Of a stretch of 64,000 bases of DNA, positions 13,570 to 50,378 are shown in pieces. The position numbers and the translations under genes are program-made. Source of the stretch: a virus (Duplodnaviria; Caudoviricetes); IMG/VR virus record IMGVR_UViG_3300028832_000114, positions 1-64,000 of that record. One strand, given 5' to 3'. Under the pieces are notes generated by a model that worked only from the letters and a program-made list of their open reading frames with translations, was not told the DNA's origin and did no database searches. Every line of letters starts with the position of its first letter. Within the stretch, counting starts at the first letter, position 1.

Positions 13570-13988
13570 TGGTGGAGATGACGGGACTCGAACCCGTGTC
13601 CAAAAACAACTACTAATCACAAATCTCATTCTTACCTTACAAGTTTTGTGCATACCGTTCTATCTATACTCTTTACCATATGCAAATCTCAAGAGTAAGT
13701 CTATGCTAAAAGTAAACATTAAGTGCGGCTGGCATAGATAGCTGACACCTTAATGGCGGTCTTTGTTAGTTAATACGATTATATTTTTCTCTGTCCGCTA
13801 CTGATACTTCATATAAAAGCTACTTAGTCTTACGCAAAGGCTACGCAATTAGATGCGAATAAAGATTTAACTTTATTAGTAATTTTTGATAAAATGTTTC
13901 CATTTAATTTTTTATGTGCTATTTAACGCATAACTACGACTTGTATTGTGATGGTTCGCTTGCTCCTGTCGAAACCAGAAACATCCCC
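13570..13988 (-). ncRNA. ssrA: tmRNA; tag (A)GNILSKITNKVKSLFASNCVAFA* at 13830-13901
   Basis: 5' GGGGATG..GGTTTCGAC, G3:U70, 3' T arm and CCA, resume codon after TAAAT. Confidence 0.93.
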
Positions 13989-16293: not shown

Positions 16294-16370
16294 TGGCGCC
16301 CCCTCAGGGATTCGAACCCCGGACACACGCCTTAGAAGGGCGTTGCTCTATCCTACTGAGCTAAGAGGGC
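16294..16370 (-). tRNA. tRNA-Arg(TCT)
   Basis: Canonical cloverleaf. Confidence 0.95.
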
Positions 16371-17802: not shown

Positions 17803-18013
17803 ATTACTTTCCTCTCTTTTCTAACAATATTATATTATAAATTATTTAAAAAATAAAGTAAAAACATGCGGACGCGAGGTTAAATAATCTTTTAATCGCG
17901 TCCTAATTTATACAAGGGCTAGTTATACATACTTCAGCTATCAATTCCCCGTCGGATGCGGTTCAGTTTTCTTCACATTAATAACTATTTCCAATTAACC
18001 CTTATTACTTTTT

Positions 18014-18089
18014 TGGCAGGGGATGAAGGCATCGAACCTCCGACCTACGGTTTTGGAGACCGTCGCTCTGCCAGCTGAGCTAATCCCCT
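18014..18089 (-). tRNA. tRNA-Trp(CCA)
   Basis: Canonical cloverleaf, G73. Confidence 0.95.
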
Positions 18090-18092
18090 ATA

Positions 18093-18188
18093 TGGCAGGG
18101 GCTGTAGGATTCGAACCCACACCCCGGGTTTTGGAGACCCGTCTTTACGGTTTTGAAGACCGCTGTGCTACCATTACACTAAGCCCCT
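18093..18188 (-). tRNA. tRNA-Trp(TCA), UGA-decoding, with a second CCA anticodon stem-loop in the variable region
   Basis: AGGGGCT acceptor, GCGGT-CTTCAAA-ACCGT then AAAGA-CGGGT-CTCCAAA-ACCCG-GGGT, normal T arm, G73, CCA. Confidence 0.88.
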
Positions 18189-18197
18189 AATTTATAA

Positions 18198-31006: not shown

Positions 31007-33316
31007 TGATATTTTAAATGAATTAAGCACAAATTTTATTGAATATGCAGTAGCGGTAAACACAGATAGAGCAATTCCTGACGCAACTTGTGGATTAAAA
31101 CCTGTAGCCCGCAGAATTTTATGGGGAGCTTTTGAAAAAGGATATACATTCTCTAAACCTCATGTTAAATCAGCTAAAATTGTTGGAGATGTAATGGGAA
31201 CATATCACCCACATGGCGATAGTTCTATCTATGGAGCTCTTGTAAGATTATCTCAACCTTGGGTTATGAGATATCCGCTTATTGATTGGCACGGTTCTAA
31301 TGGAAATATTGATGGTGATGGACCAGCTCATATGCGTTATACTGAAGCAAGGTTATCAAAACTTGCGGAAGATGGTATGTTAAAAGGAATTAAAAAGAAA
31401 AATGTTGATTTTATTCCTAACTACTCTGAGGACGCTGAAGAACCAGTTACATTACCTGCAATATTCCCTAACTTATTATGCAATCCAAATACTGGTATTG
31501 GTGTTGCGATGGCGTGTAATTTTGCCCCTCATAATTTAAAAGAAGTTGCGGAAGCTATATGCGACTATATTGAGGGCAAAGATCCAATGTTACCTGGTCC
31601 TGACTTTCCAACTGGTGGTGTAGTAATTAATAAAAATGATATACCAAACATTATGAAAACGGGTCATGGTAGTATTAAAATTAGAGCAAAATATAAACTT
31701 GAAGGACAAAATATAGTATTCTATGAAATCCCTTACGGAACATCAACTGAGAGCTTAATTGCAGAAATCGGGGAAATAGCTGAAAAAGATATTCCTGAAA
31801 TTATAAATATTAGAAATGAAAGTAATAAAAAAGGTTTAAGAATTGTAGTTGAATGTGGAAAAGGTATTAATCCAGACTCAATAGCAAATAAATTATTCTT
31901 AAAAACTGATTTACAAAGTAGTTTTTCATATAATCAAGTTGCTTTAATTAATAAAACTCCAACAGAAGTTAATTTAAAAGATTGTATTAAATTATATTTA
32001 GACCATAATATTAATTGCTTAATTAAAGAAACCGAATATGATTTAAATGCTGCGGAAGCCCGCCTAGAGATTGTAGATGGATTATTAAAAGCATTAGCAG
32101 ATATTGATAATATAATTGCTTTTATTAAGAAATCTGAGTCAAGTGCAGCCGCACGTGATGGTTTAATTAAAGAATATAAATTTACTGAACCTCAAGCAAA
32201 ATCAATTGTTGCTATGAGATTAGGTAGTTTGGCTAAACTTGAAGGTGTTGAGCTTAATACAGAAAAAGCTGATTTAATAAAAGATATTAAAAATTATAAT
32301 AAAATTTTATCTTCAAAAGATAGTCAAATAGAAATTATAAAAAATAAATTAAATGAATTAGTTAAAAAATATGGTGATGATAGAAGAACTGAGTTAGCAC
32401 AAATTGATATTCCAAAAGAAGATAAGGAAATTCAAGCCGTTGTTCCTGAAGATGTTGTAGTTATGTTATCTCAATCTGGAGATATTAAGCGTATTCCTAA
32501 ATCAAGTTTTAGAACCCAAAGAAGAAATGGTAAAGGTGTTAAATCAGAAGATGACGCAGTATTAGCATCTATCAGAACCAACACTATTGATAATTTATTA
32601 TTATTTACTAATAAAGGCAAAATGTATAAAATATTAGTTGATAAATTACCTGTTGGAACAAACGCTTCAAAAGGTCAAAATATTGCTAGTTTAGTATCAA
32701 TAGAATCAGATGAAAAAGTAATGGCGGCAGCATCATTAGATAAGGTGTAGATGCAGATTATGTTGTCTTTATCACAAAACAAGGAATTGTTAAAAAGTCA
32801 TTATTATCTGAATATACGGGTCTTAAAAAATCTACTGGAGCTCAAGCTATTAAGTTAAAAGATGGTGACAGTATTGCTAATGTTCTATTTATGAAAGATG
32901 AAGATTTAATTTTAGTATCTAAACAAGGTATGATGATTAGATTTACTACAAGTGATATTGCCCCTATTGGAAGAGTAACCACTGGTGTAAAAGGAATTAG
33001 ATTAAATGAGGGAGATGAAATTCTAACCGGAGTTATGCTTAAAGGTGGAACACATCTAGTCCTAATTAATAAAAGTGGAACTGGTAAAAAATGTTTATTA
33101 ACAGAATTTACTCCTCAAGGTAGAGGCGGTAAAGGAGTTAAGGGTTGCGGTGAAGAATTAGCTGGTGCCGCACTGGTTAATAATGAAGATAGTTTATTAT
33201 TAATTGGAAAACCTAATAGTATATGTATTGATGCAAGTGAATTGCCAGAACAAGGTAGAACTACTATTGGTGTAAAGATAGCTAAAAATGAAATTAAAAA
33301 TGTTGTTAAACTATAA
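30978..33316 (+). CDS. gyrA: DNA gyrase subunit A, interrupted by a -1 frameshift near 32743
   Basis: HPHGDSS, MRYTE, GyrA-box-like QRRNGKG; pinwheel repeats continue in the frame of ORF 32891-33316. Confidence 0.88.
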
Positions 33317-33378
33317 CAACATTTTTTATTATTCTTGAAAATACTGAAAAAATATTATATAATATATTTATAAGGGAA

Positions 33379-35319
33379 GTGATATATATGGAAAACGAAA
33401 TAAGAAATTTAATTGATAAATTAAATTATTATACAAAATTATATGATGAAGGACATCCAGCAATAACTGATCAACAATGGGATATGTTATATTTTCAATT
33501 ACAAAAAATGGAAAATGAATCTGGTATATATTTTTATGATAGTCCAACACAATCAGTTAATTATCAAGTAGTTAATAAATTAAATAAAGTAAAACATAAT
33601 CACCAAATGTTATCATTAGATAAGACAAAAGATATAAATGTAATTAAATCTTTTATTAGTGGAAAAAATTATATCGCTATGGCTAAAATGGACGGACTAA
33701 CTTGTTCACTTCACTATTTAGATGGTAAACTTATATCTGCAGAAACCCGCGGAAATGGTATTGAGGGTGAAGATATTTTACATAATGCTTTACAAGTAAA
33801 AAATATTCCTAATAAAATTAATTATAAAGAAGAATTAATAGTAGATGGCGAAATAATTTGTACTTATAAAGATTTTAAAGATTTTGAAACTGAATATAAA
33901 AATCCTAGAAATTTTGCTTCAGGAAGTATTAGATTATTAGATAGCAAAGAAAGTTCTTCTAGACATCTTACTTTTATTGCGTGGGATTGTATTAAAGGTT
34001 TTGATAAATTTGAAACATTAGCTGGAAAATTATATCAATTATCATTAATTGGTTTTACCGTTGTTCCTCAAGCACCAGAACATATAAATTTAGAAGAACA
34101 AATAAATCATATTATAGACTGGGCAAAAGAAGAAGGATATCCAATTGATGGTATTGTATTTAAATACAATAATTGCGATGAATATGAAGCTGCAGGTAAA
34201 ACTGACCATCATTTTAAAGGTGGTTTAGCATATAAATTTTATGATGAAGAGTATGAAACTCAATTAATAGATATAGAATGGAGTATGGGCAGAACTGGAG
34301 TTCTTACGCCTGTTGCTATATTTGAACCTGTCGAAATAGATGGTACTGAGGTATCAAGAGCAAGTTTACATAATATTAGTATTATTAGGGATTTATTTGG
34401 TCAAATACCTAAAAAAGGACAAAAAATATGGATATACAAAAGCAATATGATTATACCTCAAATATCAAAAGTAGAAAAATACAAAGAAACAGGAGAAGAT
34501 GATTTAAAATATCTTAATCCCCCTACCATATGTTCTATATGTGGAGAATCTACACAATTATCTGGCGATAATGATAGTATATTTTTAAGTTGCGGCAATC
34601 CACATTGTCAAGGTAAGTTTATAAACCGTTTAGACCACTTTTGTGGTAAATCCGGTTTAGATATAAGAGGGCTTTCAACGGCAACTCTCGAGAAACTTGT
34701 GAACTGGGGCTGGATTTCTAATTATGTAGATATATATAAATTAGAAAACAAGTCAAATGAATGGAAAAACAAAGCTGGTTTTGGAGAAAAGTCAGTAGAG
34801 AGGATCTTGGAAGCCATCAACAATAGTAAACATCCAACTCTTGAAGCAGTAATTGCGGCAGCGGGTATTCCTTTGATAGGACGCGCTGTTGCGAAAGAGT
34901 TGTGTAAATATATTAAAACCTATGAGGATTTTAAAAATAAGATTAACTCAGGTTTTGATTTTACTGAATATAATGGATTTGGTGAAGCTATGAAAGATGC
35001 TTTATTAAACTTTGATTACACAGAGATTGATGAAGTAGTAAATCAAATGCTTAATATTCAAACAGATATACAAAAAAATAATAGTAATAAGTTAGATGGA
35101 CTTGTATTCTGTGTTACAGGAAAAGTTCATCTATATAAAAATAGAGATGAATTAAAAGCAGATGTTGAAAATAAAGGCGGAAAAGTTGTTAGTTCAATGA
35201 GTAGCAAGGTTAATTATCTTGTTAATAATGATATAACTAGCACATCTAGTAAAAATATTGCCGCCCAACAAATGAATATTCCAATTATTACGGAAGAAGA
35301 ATTACGATTAATGTTTTAA
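33379..35319 (+). CDS. ligA: NAD-dependent DNA ligase
   Basis: KMDG, TRGNG, NPRN, Zn finger, BRCT. Confidence 0.95.
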   Translation: MIYMENEIRNLIDKLNYYTKLYDEGHPAITDQQWDMLYFQLQKMENESGIYFYDSPTQSVNYQVVNKLNKVKHNHQMLSLDKTKDINVIKSFISGKNYIAMAKMDGLTCSLHYLDGKLISAETRGNGIEGEDILHNALQVKNIPNKINYKEELIVDGEIICTYKDFKDFETEYKNPRNFASGSIRLLDSKESSSRHLTFIAWDCIKGFDKFETLAGKLYQLSLIGFTVVPQAPEHINLEEQINHIIDWAKEEGYPIDGIVFKYNNCDEYEAAGKTDHHFKGGLAYKFYDEEYETQLIDIEWSMGRTGVLTPVAIFEPVEIDGTEVSRASLHNISIIRDLFGQIPKKGQKIWIYKSNMIIPQISKVEKYKETGEDDLKYLNPPTICSICGESTQLSGDNDSIFLSCGNPHCQGKFINRLDHFCGKSGLDIRGLSTATLEKLVNWGWISNYVDIYKLENKSNEWKNKAGFGEKSVERILEAINNSKHPTLEAVIAAAGIPLIGRAVAKELCKYIKTYEDFKNKINSGFDFTEYNGFGEAMKDALLNFDYTEIDEVVNQMLNIQTDIQKNNSNKLDGLVFCVTGKVHLYKNRDELKADVENKGGKVVSSMSSKVNYLVNNDITSTSSKNIAAQQMNIPIITEEELRLMF

Positions 35320-46358: not shown

Positions 46359-46406
46359 TCTATTTGATTTTTATTTAATTTTTTAGTATAATATAAATAT
46401 ATAGGT

Positions 46407-49400
46407 ATGAAAGGAAGGGAAGATATGAGTAATAGATTTGAAGTTCATAGTCATACAATGTATAGTAATTTAAGACTTTTAGATAGTATTAACCGTCCGA
46501 AAGATTTAATTAATAAAGCAATTGAATTAGGATTAGCTGGTATAGCAATCACAGATCATGAGTGTATAAGTTCTCATCCTGAAATAAATTTTTATCAAAC
46601 AGAAGTTCAAAAAGAACATCCTGATTTTAAAATAGCATTAGGAAATGAAATATATTTAACTGACACAAGAGATAGTGGTCAAAGATATTATCACTTTATT
46701 TTAATAGCAAAAAATAAAATAGGTCATCGCGCATTAAGAGAATTATCTTCAAGAGCGTGGATGAATAGTTATTGGAATCGAGGTCTTGAACGTGTTCCAA
46801 CATTAAAAGATGATTTAGAAGAAATATTAAAAAAGTATCCGAATAGTTTAATTGGAACAACAGCATGTTTAGGTGGGGAATTAAGTATTAATACATTAGA
46901 ATTAATAAAATGTGAAAAAACTAATGATAAAGATGGTGCGGCAGTTGCACATAATAATATAGTAAAATTTTTGTTATGGTGCAAAAATGTATTTGGAGAT
47001 AATAATTTTTATATTGAATGTGCTCCTGGTACAAGTCGTGAACAAATCTTAGTTAATAAAAGATTTCCCGCAATTGCAAAAGCATTTGGATTAAAAATGG
47101 TTATTGGAACAGATGCACATTATCTTAAAAAAGAAGATAGATATGTTCATAAAGCATATCTTAATAGTAAGTTTGGAGAGCGTGAAGTAGATGAGTTCTA
47201 TGAATTTGCATATCTTCAAAATAACGAAGAAATAATAGAACATTTAAAAGCATCTGATTTTAGTAATGAATTTATAGATGAAATGTTTCAAAATAGTTAT
47301 GAAATATATGCAAAGATAGAAAATTATAATTTAGCTCATGCGCAAACAATCCCTCATGTTGAAGTAGAAGATTATCCTATTATAGAGATTGAATCAGAAG
47401 AATTTTTAGATAAGTATCCAGTTTTATCTGATATGTTTCAATCAAATGATCAAATAGAAAGATATTGGGTAAACAAATGTTCAAATAAATTAAGAAAATT
47501 GGGTTTAAGAAATGAAACTTATCTAAGTAGATTAGAAGAAGAGGCGGATATTAAAAGAACAATTAGTGAAAAATTAGGAACTAATATGTTTGCATATCCA
47601 GTTACACTTCAACATTATGTAGATTTATTTTGGAATTGTGGAAGTATAGTAGGAGCTGGTCGTGGTTCAAGTTGTTCAGGTTTAAATCATTATTTATTAG
47701 GTATAACTCAACTTGATCCGATACAATGGAATCTTCCATTCTGGAGATATTTAAATAAAGAGCGTGTTGAGTTAGGTGATATAGATTTAGATTTATGTCC
47801 AAGTAAGCGTCCTAAGATTTTAAATGAAATTAAAAAAGAAAGAGGACAAAATTTTAAGGCGGAAATAGATGATTTAAGTAGAAAGAATCTTGGTTGTACA
47901 TTAATAGCAACATTTGGTACAGAGGGTACAAGATCAACAATATTAACTGCATGTCGTGGTTATAGGAATGAAGAGTATCCAGATGGTATAGATGTTGATA
48001 CAGCACAATATTTATCATCATTAATCCCAAGTGAACGTGGGTTCTTATGGCCGCTTAATGATGTTATTAATGGTGATGAAGAAAAAGGTAGAAAGCCAAT
48101 TAAAACATTTATAAATGAAGTAAATATGTTTCCTGGATTATTAGATATAATGTCTGGTATTGAAGGTTTAGTAAATAAAAGAAGTAGTCATGCTTCAGGA
48201 GTTATCTTATTTGATGAAGATCCATATGAGTTTGGTGCATTTATGAGAACTCCAAAAGGAGAAATTATCACAGCGTATGATTTGCATATGTGTGAAGCAT
48301 GTGGTATGACGAAATATGACTTCTTAGTAACAGAAGTTCAAGATAAATTAACAGAAGCAATTAAAATGTTGCAAGATTATGGAGAAATTGAAAGTGATTT
48401 AACATTAAGAGAAGTATATGATAAATATTTTCACCCAAATGTTCTTCCTATTGAAGATAATAAATATTGGAAAGTATTGCAAGATAATAGTGTTTTAAAT
48501 ATCTTTCAGTTTGATAGTGATGTTGGAGGTCAAGCCGCAAAAAAGATTAAGCCAACAAATATAATGGAAATGGCGGATGCAAATGGTTTGATGAGATTAA
48601 TGACTGCGGAAAAAGGTCAAGAAACTCCAATGGAAAAATATATAAGATTTAAGAATAATATAAATTTATGGTATAGAGAAATGGACTCATATGGTCTAAC
48701 AAAAGAAGAACAAAAAGTATTAGAGCCATATTTTAAGAGTTCACATGGTGTTCCTCCAAGCCAAGAGCAGTTAATGAGAATGTTAATGGATGAAAAGATT
48801 TGTAACTTTACTCTTGCGGAAGCGAATGCCGCACGTAAGATAGTTGGTAAGAAACAAATGAATAAGATCCCCGCATTAAGACAACAGGTATTAGATCAAG
48901 CGTCAAGTCCATGTATGGGTAATTATATATGGAAGTGTGGTGTTGGTCCGCAGATGGGATATTCATTTAGTATCATTCACGCGTTAGCATATAGTTTCAT
49001 TGGTTTTCAAACAATGTATATAGCGACAAGATGGAATCCGATATATTGGAACACAGCGTGTTTAATAGTTAATAGCGGAAGTCTTGAAGAAGATAGTGAT
49101 TTTGAAGAAGACGAGGATGGATATATAGTTGAGAAAAAAGAAAAATCAACAGATTATAGTAAAATAGCAAAAGCGTTAGGAGATATAATTAATAAAGGAA
49201 TTAAAGTTAGTTTAGTTGATATAAATAGGTCAGATTATAGTTTTCAACCAGATGTAGATAATAATGAAATATTATTTGGTATGAAAGCATTAAATAATGT
49301 TGGCGGTCCGATTATTGAACAAATAAAAGCAAGTCGTCCTTATGCGGGAATCGCAGATTTTATGGCAAAGTGTCCGTTGAATAAGAGTGCAATGATTAGT

Positions 49401-50378
49401 TTAATTAAGGCGGGTGCATTTGATAAAGTAGATAGAGATAATGCGGCGGCCGCAGGTGTAGAACCACGAATCTGGACAATGGTATATTATTTAAGTAAGG
49501 TTTGTGAAGCAAAGAAAAGATTAACCTTACAAAACTTTAATGGTCTATTGCAACACGAACTTATTCCTCAAGAATTAGATTTTCAAAAAAGAACTTTTGT
49601 ATTTAATAAATATTTAAAAGCAAATCAAAAAGTTGGAAAATATTATGTATTTAATCCATCTTGCGAAGAGTTTTATAATAAGTTTTTTGATGCTGACCAG
49701 TTAGAAGTAATAAATGGTTTAACTTGTATTCTTCAAACAAGATGGGATAAGATTTATCAAGATGTTATGGCGGAAGCCCGCACATGGTTACAAGAACATC
49801 AAGAAGAAATGTTAAAGAAATTTAATATGATATTATTTAAAGAATATTGGGATAAATATGCACAAGGAAATATTTCTGCGTGGGAAATGGAATCATTATG
49901 TTTCTATTATCATGAACACGAGTTAGCACATGTTAATACATATAAATATGGAATTGCAAATTTCTTTGATTTGCCAACAGAACCTCCTATTGATTCAATG
50001 TTTAAGAGAAATGGTAAAGACATTCCAATCTATCAAACATTTAAAATAATAGGAACAGTAATTAATAAAAATGATGTAAAAAGTTCAATCACAATATTAA
50101 CGACAAAAGGTATCGTAACTGTCAAATTTACAAAAGAATATTATGCAATGTATAATCGTCAGTTAAGCGAAATCCAAGAAGATGGAACAAAAAAGATAAC
50201 TGAAAAAGGTTGGTTCACAAGAGGAACAAAAGTTATGATAACTGGGTTTAGAAGAGATGATATGTTTGTTGCAAAAAGTTATACAAAAACACAAACACAT
50301 CAATTATATAAAATATTAGAAGTAGATGGCGGCAATATGAAACTCGAACATGAAAGAAAAACAGCCGCAGAAGAATAG
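46407..50378 (+). CDS. dnaE: DNA polymerase III alpha subunit
   Basis: PHP HSHT..S/TDH, GRGS, DIDLD, HASG, OB fold. Confidence 0.95.
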   Translation: MKGREDMSNRFEVHSHTMYSNLRLLDSINRPKDLINKAIELGLAGIAITDHECISSHPEINFYQTEVQKEHPDFKIALGNEIYLTDTRDSGQRYYHFILIAKNKIGHRALRELSSRAWMNSYWNRGLERVPTLKDDLEEILKKYPNSLIGTTACLGGELSINTLELIKCEKTNDKDGAAVAHNNIVKFLLWCKNVFGDNNFYIECAPGTSREQILVNKRFPAIAKAFGLKMVIGTDAHYLKKEDRYVHKAYLNSKFGEREVDEFYEFAYLQNNEEIIEHLKASDFSNEFIDEMFQNSYEIYAKIENYNLAHAQTIPHVEVEDYPIIEIESEEFLDKYPVLSDMFQSNDQIERYWVNKCSNKLRKLGLRNETYLSRLEEEADIKRTISEKLGTNMFAYPVTLQHYVDLFWNCGSIVGAGRGSSCSGLNHYLLGITQLDPIQWNLPFWRYLNKERVELGDIDLDLCPSKRPKILNEIKKERGQNFKAEIDDLSRKNLGCTLIATFGTEGTRSTILTACRGYRNEEYPDGIDVDTAQYLSSLIPSERGFLWPLNDVINGDEEKGRKPIKTFINEVNMFPGLLDIMSGIEGLVNKRSSHASGVILFDEDPYEFGAFMRTPKGEIITAYDLHMCEACGMTKYDFLVTEVQDKLTEAIKMLQDYGEIESDLTLREVYDKYFHPNVLPIEDNKYWKVLQDNSVLNIFQFDSDVGGQAAKKIKPTNIMEMADANGLMRLMTAEKGQETPMEKYIRFKNNINLWYREMDSYGLTKEEQKVLEPYFKSSHGVPPSQEQLMRMLMDEKICNFTLAEANAARKIVGKKQMNKIPALRQQVLDQASSPCMGNYIWKCGVGPQMGYSFSIIHALAYSFIGFQTMYIATRWNPIYWNTACLIVNSGSLEEDSDFEEDEDGYIVEKKEKSTDYSKIAKALGDIINKGIKVSLVDINRSDYSFQPDVDNNEILFGMKALNNVGGPIIEQIKASRPYAGIADFMAKCPLNKSAMISLIKAGAFDKVDRDNAAAAGVEPRIWTMVYYLSKVCEAKKRLTLQNFNGLLQHELIPQELDFQKRTFVFNKYLKANQKVGKYYVFNPSCEEFYNKFFDADQLEVINGLTCILQTRWDKIYQDVMAEARTWLQEHQEEMLKKFNMILFKEYWDKYAQGNISAWEMESLCFYYHEHELAHVNTYKYGIANFFDLPTEPPIDSMFKRNGKDIPIYQTFKIIGTVINKNDVKSSITILTTKGIVTVKFTKEYYAMYNRQLSEIQEDGTKKITEKGWFTRGTKVMITGFRRDDMFVAKSYTKTQTHQLYKILEVDGGNMKLEHERKTAAEE

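Follow-up and report, generated by a model that had tools for sequence, protein, structure and literature searches.

Bacteriophages that read TGA as tryptophan and encode a suppressor tRNA(UCA) were reported by Borges et al. (preprint 10.1101/2021.08.26.457843) and Seki et al. (PMC12636597). As far as the accessible parts of these two sources go, such phages have in common with the phage described here the UCA anticodon, in-frame TGA standing for Trp in late genes, a tRNA cluster and a host that presumably uses the standard code. The same parts describe no extra arm in their tRNA(UCA), and the characterised pairs there use a phage tryptophanyl-tRNA synthetase (TrpRS), whereas the phage considered here has none. 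In all domains of life the main identity element for TrpRS is the anticodon, joined in bacteria by G73 and acceptor pairs (PMC12135181, PMC9976931). The identity of Trp and Gln tRNAs lies largely in the anticodon, so that conversion to reading of a stop codon should harm charging, which is also the central obstacle in the engineering of suppressor tRNAs.

Two further systems are close in structure. In the allo-tRNAs of Mukai 2020 (PMC7590224), the real anticodon is directed at a stop codon (amber), and a hairpin in the variable (V) arm imitates a cognate anticodon arm; this engineered pseudo-anticodon arm can enhance aminoacylation and specificity, which required a HisRS with a further anticodon-binding domain fused to it. 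The thrS operator of E. coli and other mRNA mimics of anticodon arms are bound by their own synthetases under identity rules, the thrS operator presenting two anticodon-like arms to a dimeric enzyme (Giege and Eriani, PMC9976931). These elements likewise place an anticodon-loop look-alike outside the anticodon position of a tRNA (PMC9976931), but they are regulatory parts of mRNAs and are not aminoacylated. Here we describe a natural tRNA in which a mimic of this kind stands inside the decoding molecule itself.

The window (the whole stretch of 64,000 nucleotides that was analysed) belongs to an IMG/VR virus record of 104,464 bp, a cattle-gut phage. A 96-nt tRNA gene occupies positions 18093-18188 of the window on the minus strand and is supported as a whole opal-suppressor tRNA-Trp(UCA) by ARAGORN, Rfam RF00005 and the predicted fold; it is the sole tRNA(UCA) listed by ARAGORN in the window. 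Its body is that of a tRNA-Trp, with A1-U72, G2-5:C68-71, A9, G73 and an encoded CCA end. Reading along the minus strand, the 5' strand of the acceptor stem, AGGGGCU (18182-18188, with A1 and G2-G5), is followed by UA (U8 and A9), by the D arm GUGU-AAUGGUA-GCAC (18165-18179), which is of class I as in tRNA-Trp, by a single A, and by the true anticodon arm GCGGU-CUUCAAA-ACCGU (18147-18163), whose UCA anticodon lies at 18154-18156. A single-stranded linker of 5 nt, AAAGA (18142-18146), separates this arm from an extra hairpin, CGGGU-CUCCAAA-ACCCG (18125-18141), and a 3' linker GGGU (18121-18124), resembling the short variable loop of an ordinary tRNA-Trp, leads to the T arm GUGGG-UUCGAAU-CCUAC (18104-18120). 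The 3' acceptor strand AGCCCCU, the discriminator G73 (18096) and the CCA end (18093-18095) close the gene at 18093-18103. The variable region therefore measures 26 nt and contains a hairpin of 5 bp and 7 nt, in which CCA (18132-18134) sits in the centre of the loop, preceded by a U33-like U and followed by A. An ordinary tRNA-Trp(CCA) (18014-18089, minus strand; ARAGORN and the Rfam tRNA model) lies immediately downstream. Its anticodon loop, CUCCAAA, recurs letter for letter in the extra hairpin, which has the 5-bp stem and cognate loop of a pseudo-anticodon V arm. A preliminary description of this DNA had read the sequence and its arms in the same way, and the minus strand matches that reading exactly; its view that the extra arm is a complete look-alike of an anticodon arm with CCA is correct.

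Both the minimum free energy and the centroid fold of the two-armed tRNA are predicted to be a cloverleaf with five arms, in which the pairs of the two hairpins have probabilities of 0.73-0.98; fold prediction gave no cross-complementarity between the UCA arm and the extra arm, and no alternative secondary structure. The Rfam model RF00005 scores 61.6 bits against a gathering threshold of 29 (E 4.9e-13) over its full length (1-71), and its alignment accommodates 23 nt of the variable region as inserted residues. An intron was rejected as the explanation of the extra region.

The gene is part of a minus-strand cluster of 24 tRNA genes and a tmRNA. The tmRNA, predicted by ARAGORN inside the cluster at 13570-13988 (minus strand), has the tag peptide DREKYNRIN*; tmRNAs are also carried by the relatives L005, L006, L007, L011 and L012, with quite different tags. 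ARAGORN further called a 'tRNA-Pyl (cta)' of 77 nt at 16294-16370 (minus strand), a call repeated in the relatives L009 and L010. The Infernal register gives a perfect 5-bp stem ACGCC/GGCGU with the loop CUUCUAA at this place, so the gene is a tRNA-Arg(UCU) and the phage therefore has no amber suppressor.

The stretch is present in bovine-gut runs of more than 10 studies. A 216-nt contig from a different study shows 0 differences over 17974-18189, and further contigs hold diverged versions of the same 96-nt gene. Contigs of other bovine-gut studies thus reproduce the two arms; the argument of the preliminary description that the design is no assembly duplication stands, independent assemblies repeating the layout with compensatory changes in the extra stem. 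The two-armed tRNA is real, widespread and under selection, and neither a product of chance nor an assembly artefact. In two metatranscriptome runs the matching contigs were solely short ones, falling on conserved parts of the tRNA with 88-95% likeness. Contigs in two other runs join across 18003-18092, skipping 85-86 nt with 6-8 other letters in between; they represent relatives without the adjacent ordinary tRNA-Trp(CCA), and since that gene is absent from them, the two-armed tRNA may be their sole Trp tRNA. The metagenome-assembled bins that hold relatives were assigned to Coriobacteriia, Treponema and Bacteroides, possibly through mis-binning of phage contigs.

The meaning of UGA was assessed by a codon-by-codon comparison of the coding-strand open reading frames of the phage with two complete relatives. 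Restriction to the coding strand mattered here: antisense frames overlapping real genes had given 22 TGA/TGT pairs, and zero were left once coding-strand frames alone were kept. The 103 aligned in-frame TGA codons of the phage face TGG in 57 cases, TGA in 15, TTT in 9 and TAT in 7, and their substitution profile is that of TGG itself. Since TGA aligns with TGG and shares its profile, the comparison shows that UGA stands for Trp in this phage. Many coding-strand frames are open only when TGA is read through. In NrdD, W230(TGA) aligns in solved structures to Phe or to a non-conserved position, and this site is uninformative on the meaning of TGA. A UCA anticodon in a phage whose conserved genes carry TGA in frame where Trp stands is the pattern of a code-4-like recoded phage, and the earlier identification of the gene as a UGA-reading tRNA-Trp is upheld by the anticodon, the Trp-type acceptor and the alignment of TGA with TGG.

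Among 53 homologue-supported genes there are 137 TGA and 121 TGG codons, about half of the Trp codons being UGA. Their use depends on the gene: the TGA/TGG counts are 0/19 at 46392-50375 and 0/8 at 33310-35316, and they become high in large genes further on (14/1 at 62931-65318, 16/6, and 28/6 at genome positions 91890-100559). This unevenness fits recoded phages on standard-code hosts as described in the preprint by Borges et al. (10.1101/2021.08.26.457843). Between this phage (G000) and its relatives G004/G005 the use of TGA is strongly asymmetric: a TGA of G000 faces TGG 57 times, and a TGA of the relatives faces a TGG of G000 4 times. TGA is thus used far more by this phage than by G004/G005, so its use is expanding, or strongly different, within one clade.

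Conservation of the extra arm was followed by pattern scans of several collections. A scan of IMG/VR that required both loops (UCA and CCA) found 12 tRNAs in phage contigs of 97-136 kb, whose extra stems differ by compensatory changes. The second IMG/VR scan fixed the UCA loop and the T loop and left the extra loop free; it brought in a further 12 tRNA(UCA), which differ widely and have long variable regions, in some cases together with a class II-like D arm; all 12 show U-CCA-A in the variable region. The same kind of scan over 185,579 prokaryote genomes gave 12 long tRNA(UCA), about six of which are genuine tRNA-Sec (8-bp acceptor, long D stem), none with the motif, and five Trp-like, all with it. 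Metagenomes contributed at least 104 more long tRNA(UCA), at least 83 of them distinct, with UCCAA in 71 of 83 among the matches listed; the loop is fixed there over at least 43 distinct extra-stem strands, again among the matches listed. When the scans are pooled, U-CCA-A occurs in the extra region of 88 of the 100 distinct long-arm tRNA(UCA) among the matches listed. In the same listed set, U72 together with G73 is present in 86 of the 88 motif-bearing sequences and A1-U72 in 75 of them, and the 12 sequences without the motif are mostly G1-C72 and Sec-like or Ser-like. The motif was found in 0 of 38 distinct Leu, Ser and Tyr tRNAs of the same phages.

The pattern of substitution agrees with selection on the loop. 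In a covariance-model alignment of 21 family members, an alignment fitted to the model, A1-U72 is invariant (21/21), 94% of the cells of the extra stem (helix 4) pair, with changes on both strands at four of the five base pairs. No other pairs in the molecule vary as much, and the loop is unchanged; each variable region folded alone gives the same hairpin. Tandem arms with compensatory stem changes, which the preliminary description had proposed to look for in related phages, were thus found. A relaxed scan (CTTCAAA..GGTTCGAATCC) added at least three members, with mostly chance matches among those listed.

Several other elements turned up in these scans. L151, L156, L498, L500 and L502 (IMG/VR) are tRNA-like: they combine a CUUCAAA loop with a GGTTCGAATCC T arm and lack a recognisable D arm or normal acceptor; elements of this type receive no ARAGORN call and recur in several large phage contigs. 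L325 and its metagenome relatives form a separate group of long tRNA(UCA) with G1-C72, a Cys-like discriminator U73 and the extra loops AUCCA or AACCA. L103, on a contig of a Chloroflexota metagenome-assembled genome, is an 88-nt tRNA(UCA) with G1-C72, G73, a class II-like D arm and the extra loop CACCAA, which has A, not U, before CCA.

A counterpart exists among amber suppressors. We found 49 long tRNA(CUA), 33 of them distinct, in which the loop of the extra hairpin is CUCUGAA or CUUUGAA, that is, a Gln anticodon loop; the scan forced the Gln motif, and so demonstrates that the counterpart exists and not how frequent it is. The productive pattern was CTCTAA; scans with TCTAA..TTYTGA and TTCTAA..TTYTGA were discarded, having matched only ordinary tRNA-Gln(UUG) with TCTAA in the D loop. 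Many of the long tRNA(CUA) have U1-A72 and G73. The layout is shared with the UGA suppressors, a stop-reading arm followed by a small hairpin with the cognate sense anticodon, while the amino acid and the synthetase (GlnRS) are different and the extra stems are mostly shorter (3-5 bp). GlnRS is a monomer. With CCA on UGA suppressors and a Gln loop on amber suppressors, two anticodon-dependent synthetases appear to be served by the same solution, which argues for a charging handle and against regulators specific for Trp, and does so more strongly than the distribution of phage TrpRS genes given below.

The bacterial identity elements of tRNA-Trp can be followed through the two-armed molecule one by one. 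G73 (18096) is present, as are all of A1-U72, G2-C71, G3-C70, G4-C69 and G5-C68. The decoding arm does not have C34 C35 A36 (it reads U34 C35 A36), and CCA is found in the extra hairpin only. Neither TrpRS nor RF1 is encoded in the phage or in four relatives, two of them complete. A match to PF00579, the TrpRS/TyrRS family, was absent from all 26 records that carry a long-arm tRNA(UCA), nine of them at least 90% complete, and present in 3 of 11 records with a tRNA(UCA) of normal length, where the matches are trpS at 281-289 bits. The difference is suggestive of an association of the long arm with absence of a phage TrpRS (one-sided Fisher test about 0.02, or about 0.07 with G011 and G012 counted once, the lineages being few and non-independent). 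The records with trpS, L153/L154 (G011/G012) and L149 (G007), are phages of 223-237 kb with a normal 75-nt tRNA(UCA). In G011 this tRNA and trpS stand about 2.5 kb apart, an arrangement resembling the 'code change operon' of Borges et al.

Other observations set bounds on what the extra arm can contribute. Phage tRNA(UCA) of normal length also occur without a phage TrpRS in the same record; therefore the handle is not obligatory. The structure paper on E. coli TrpRS states that the enzyme need not distinguish C34 from U34 (PMC12135181), and all 13 phage tRNA(UCA) tried in E. coli extract inserted Trp (PMC12636597). Given these insertions and the existence of normal-length suppressors, the handle would be at most an enhancer. 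It is perhaps needed once U34 is modified. In addition, the tip of the variable arm is not the usual place where TrpRS meets the anticodon, which counts against a handle; this tip lies far from the CCA end (Mukai 2020, PMC7590224).

As to origin, no GenBank phage record covers at least 80% of the two-armed tRNA. Its nucleotides 50-96 (the CCA hairpin, GGGU, T arm and acceptor) align with ordinary tRNA-Trp(CCA) genes of GenBank phages over their 3' halves, and for nucleotides 6-40 the match, at 91-94%, is with Bacillus-phage tRNA-Trp genes over their 5' halves. The homology of both halves to tRNA-Trp genes therefore gives the molecule the look of an arm duplication or a gene fusion, and its likely origin, judged from these alignments, is a duplication of the anticodon arm or a fusion of tandem tRNA-Trp(UCA) and tRNA-Trp(CCA) genes. 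The same homology would be expected of a neutral relic of such an event without present function. A relic should decay, yet the loop is fixed over at least 43 stems with compensatory changes and the motif also sits on class II-like bodies, and we hold this reading to be very improbable. The ARAGORN label of the 96-nt gene, 'tRNA-SeC (tca)', suggests a tRNA for selenocysteine, or one of serine type, that SerRS would charge by way of the long arm, and indeed the UCA anticodon, the long variable region and G73 are shared with tRNA-Sec, the long arm also with the class II tRNAs for Ser, Leu and Tyr. In bacterial tRNA-Sec the 8-bp acceptor and the 5-bp T stem form a branch of 13 bp, and the D stem has 6 bp and its loop 4 nt; class II tRNAs combine a D arm of class II with a long variable arm that has 3-5 nt in its loop and is flanked by 1-2 nt at the base. 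The two-armed tRNA differs from both, with an acceptor of 7 bp and a T stem of 5 bp (a 7/5 branch, not 8/5), A1-U72, a 4-bp D stem and 7-nt D loop in a class I D arm, a fixed anticodon-like loop of 7 nt, and linkers of 5 and 4 nt, although class II-like D arms and short linkers are found in its distant relatives L014, L018, L023 and L026. The genuine tRNA-Sec retrieved with the same pattern look different, having an 8-bp GGAAG-type acceptor and no loop motif, and TGA aligns with TGG rather than with Cys or Ser codons. A Sec or Ser tRNA is accordingly exceedingly improbable here.

Two functional alternatives deserve more attention. The molecule could be two-headed, with alternative stacking that brings the CCA head under the D stem during charging (and perhaps lets it read UGG) and the UCA head there during decoding of UGA. 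Both hairpins are of 5 bp and 7 nt and share one junction, in which each has one canonical side, A26 before the UCA arm and the GGGU 'variable loop' after the CCA arm; the linkers are long and single-stranded (5 and 4 nt), and nucleotides 50-96 and 6-40 correspond to the 3' and 5' halves of ordinary tRNA-Trp genes. This arrangement is harder to extend to the class II-like members L014, L018 and L026, whose 1-nt linkers and longer V stems could not replace an anticodon arm, or to the 3-bp extra stems of the amber counterparts, which could not do so either. Moreover, the separate tRNA-Trp(CCA) of the phage makes reading of UGG by the two-armed tRNA unnecessary, and no alternative secondary structure is predicted, so we think the two-headed reading unlikely while worth weighing. 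The other alternative is that the extra loop is read by a partner other than TrpRS. It might bind a phage factor, or it might serve as a sponge or decoy for a host factor that recognises the anticodon loop of tRNA-Trp, such as an anticodon nuclease, a T-box leader whose specifier is UGG, or an A37 modification enzyme of the MiaA type. The loop does keep the U33-like, CCA and A37-A38-like positions that any reader of anticodon loops needs. However, the motif co-occurs with G73 and U72 (86/88 among the matches listed), features relevant to charging but not to a decoy; the Gln loop in the same layout on amber suppressors speaks against a regulator specific for Trp; and the great diversity of the carrier phages points to a universal partner in the host. 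A nuclease decoy had been offered in the preliminary description, and nothing in support of it was found; we know of no nuclease defence specific for tRNA-Trp. On balance, a reader other than TrpRS is distinctly unlikely.

The explanation that we favour, and regard as fairly probable on the comparative sequence evidence, is that the extra hairpin is a natural 'pseudo-anticodon' that keeps recognition by the host TrpRS while the real anticodon reads UGA. Under this model, the phage encodes an opal-suppressor tRNA-Trp whose UCA arm would decode UGA as tryptophan, the UGA codons (about half of those for Trp) being concentrated in putative late and structural genes. The oversized variable region would be a selected hairpin that shows U-CCA-A in the geometry of an anticodon loop. 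The phage has no TrpRS, and the host enzyme therefore must charge the two-armed tRNA; the pseudo-anticodon may supply it with the C34 C35 A36 that were lost from the decoding arm or are masked by modification of U34, and charging would thereby stay quick enough to win the competition with RF2. One arm of the molecule would then serve identity and the other decoding, and TrpRS would be, as we infer, the reader of the extra loop. Help in charging of the UCA tRNA by the host TrpRS is the only one of the three roles in the preliminary description that has gained support, because the CCA loop is found together with the Trp identity set, because no TrpRS was found in any of the 26 records with the long arm, and because there is a Gln counterpart in amber suppressors as well as an engineered precedent. 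The third role, a switch in folding or processing that times the change of code, does not agree with two stable hairpins whose arms lack cross-complementarity; we are aware of no mechanism for removing an arm from a tRNA.

The two-armed tRNA thus adds a new structural form to the phage suppressor tRNAs known so far, with a function that we infer. No published natural tRNA of this layout was found in open-access papers and bioRxiv, in agreement with the earlier statement that no tRNA of this design had been described, and the engineered arm of Mukai 2020 is the only precedent found. That design is synthetic, belongs to the His system and is built on an allo-tRNA (9/3) chassis, whereas the two-armed tRNA is natural, belongs to Trp, has the 7/5 body of a tRNA-Trp and presumably works with an unmodified host TrpRS.

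The consequences reach beyond one phage. Genes of this kind are labelled tRNA-Sec by tRNA finders, so that recoding of UGA to Trp goes unnoticed when phages are annotated. Should the extra arm be a pseudo-anticodon, then phages have met the charging problem by moving an identity element to another place, a fifth functional arm would be added to the tRNA repertoire, and a compact, transferable design would be available for genetic-code expansion and therapeutic suppressor tRNAs. We consider it evenly balanced whether a general rule holds in recoded phages, by which a suppressor retains in its variable arm, as a pseudo-anticodon addressed to the host synthetase, a copy of the sense anticodon loop that it had before: suppressors of UGA would show CCA to TrpRS, and suppressors of UAG would show CUG or UUG to GlnRS. 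Were this rule true, one small RNA gene without a synthetase of its own would change the code of a standard-code host, and the pseudo-anticodon would explain how recoded phages that lack their own synthetase take over the code of such a host.
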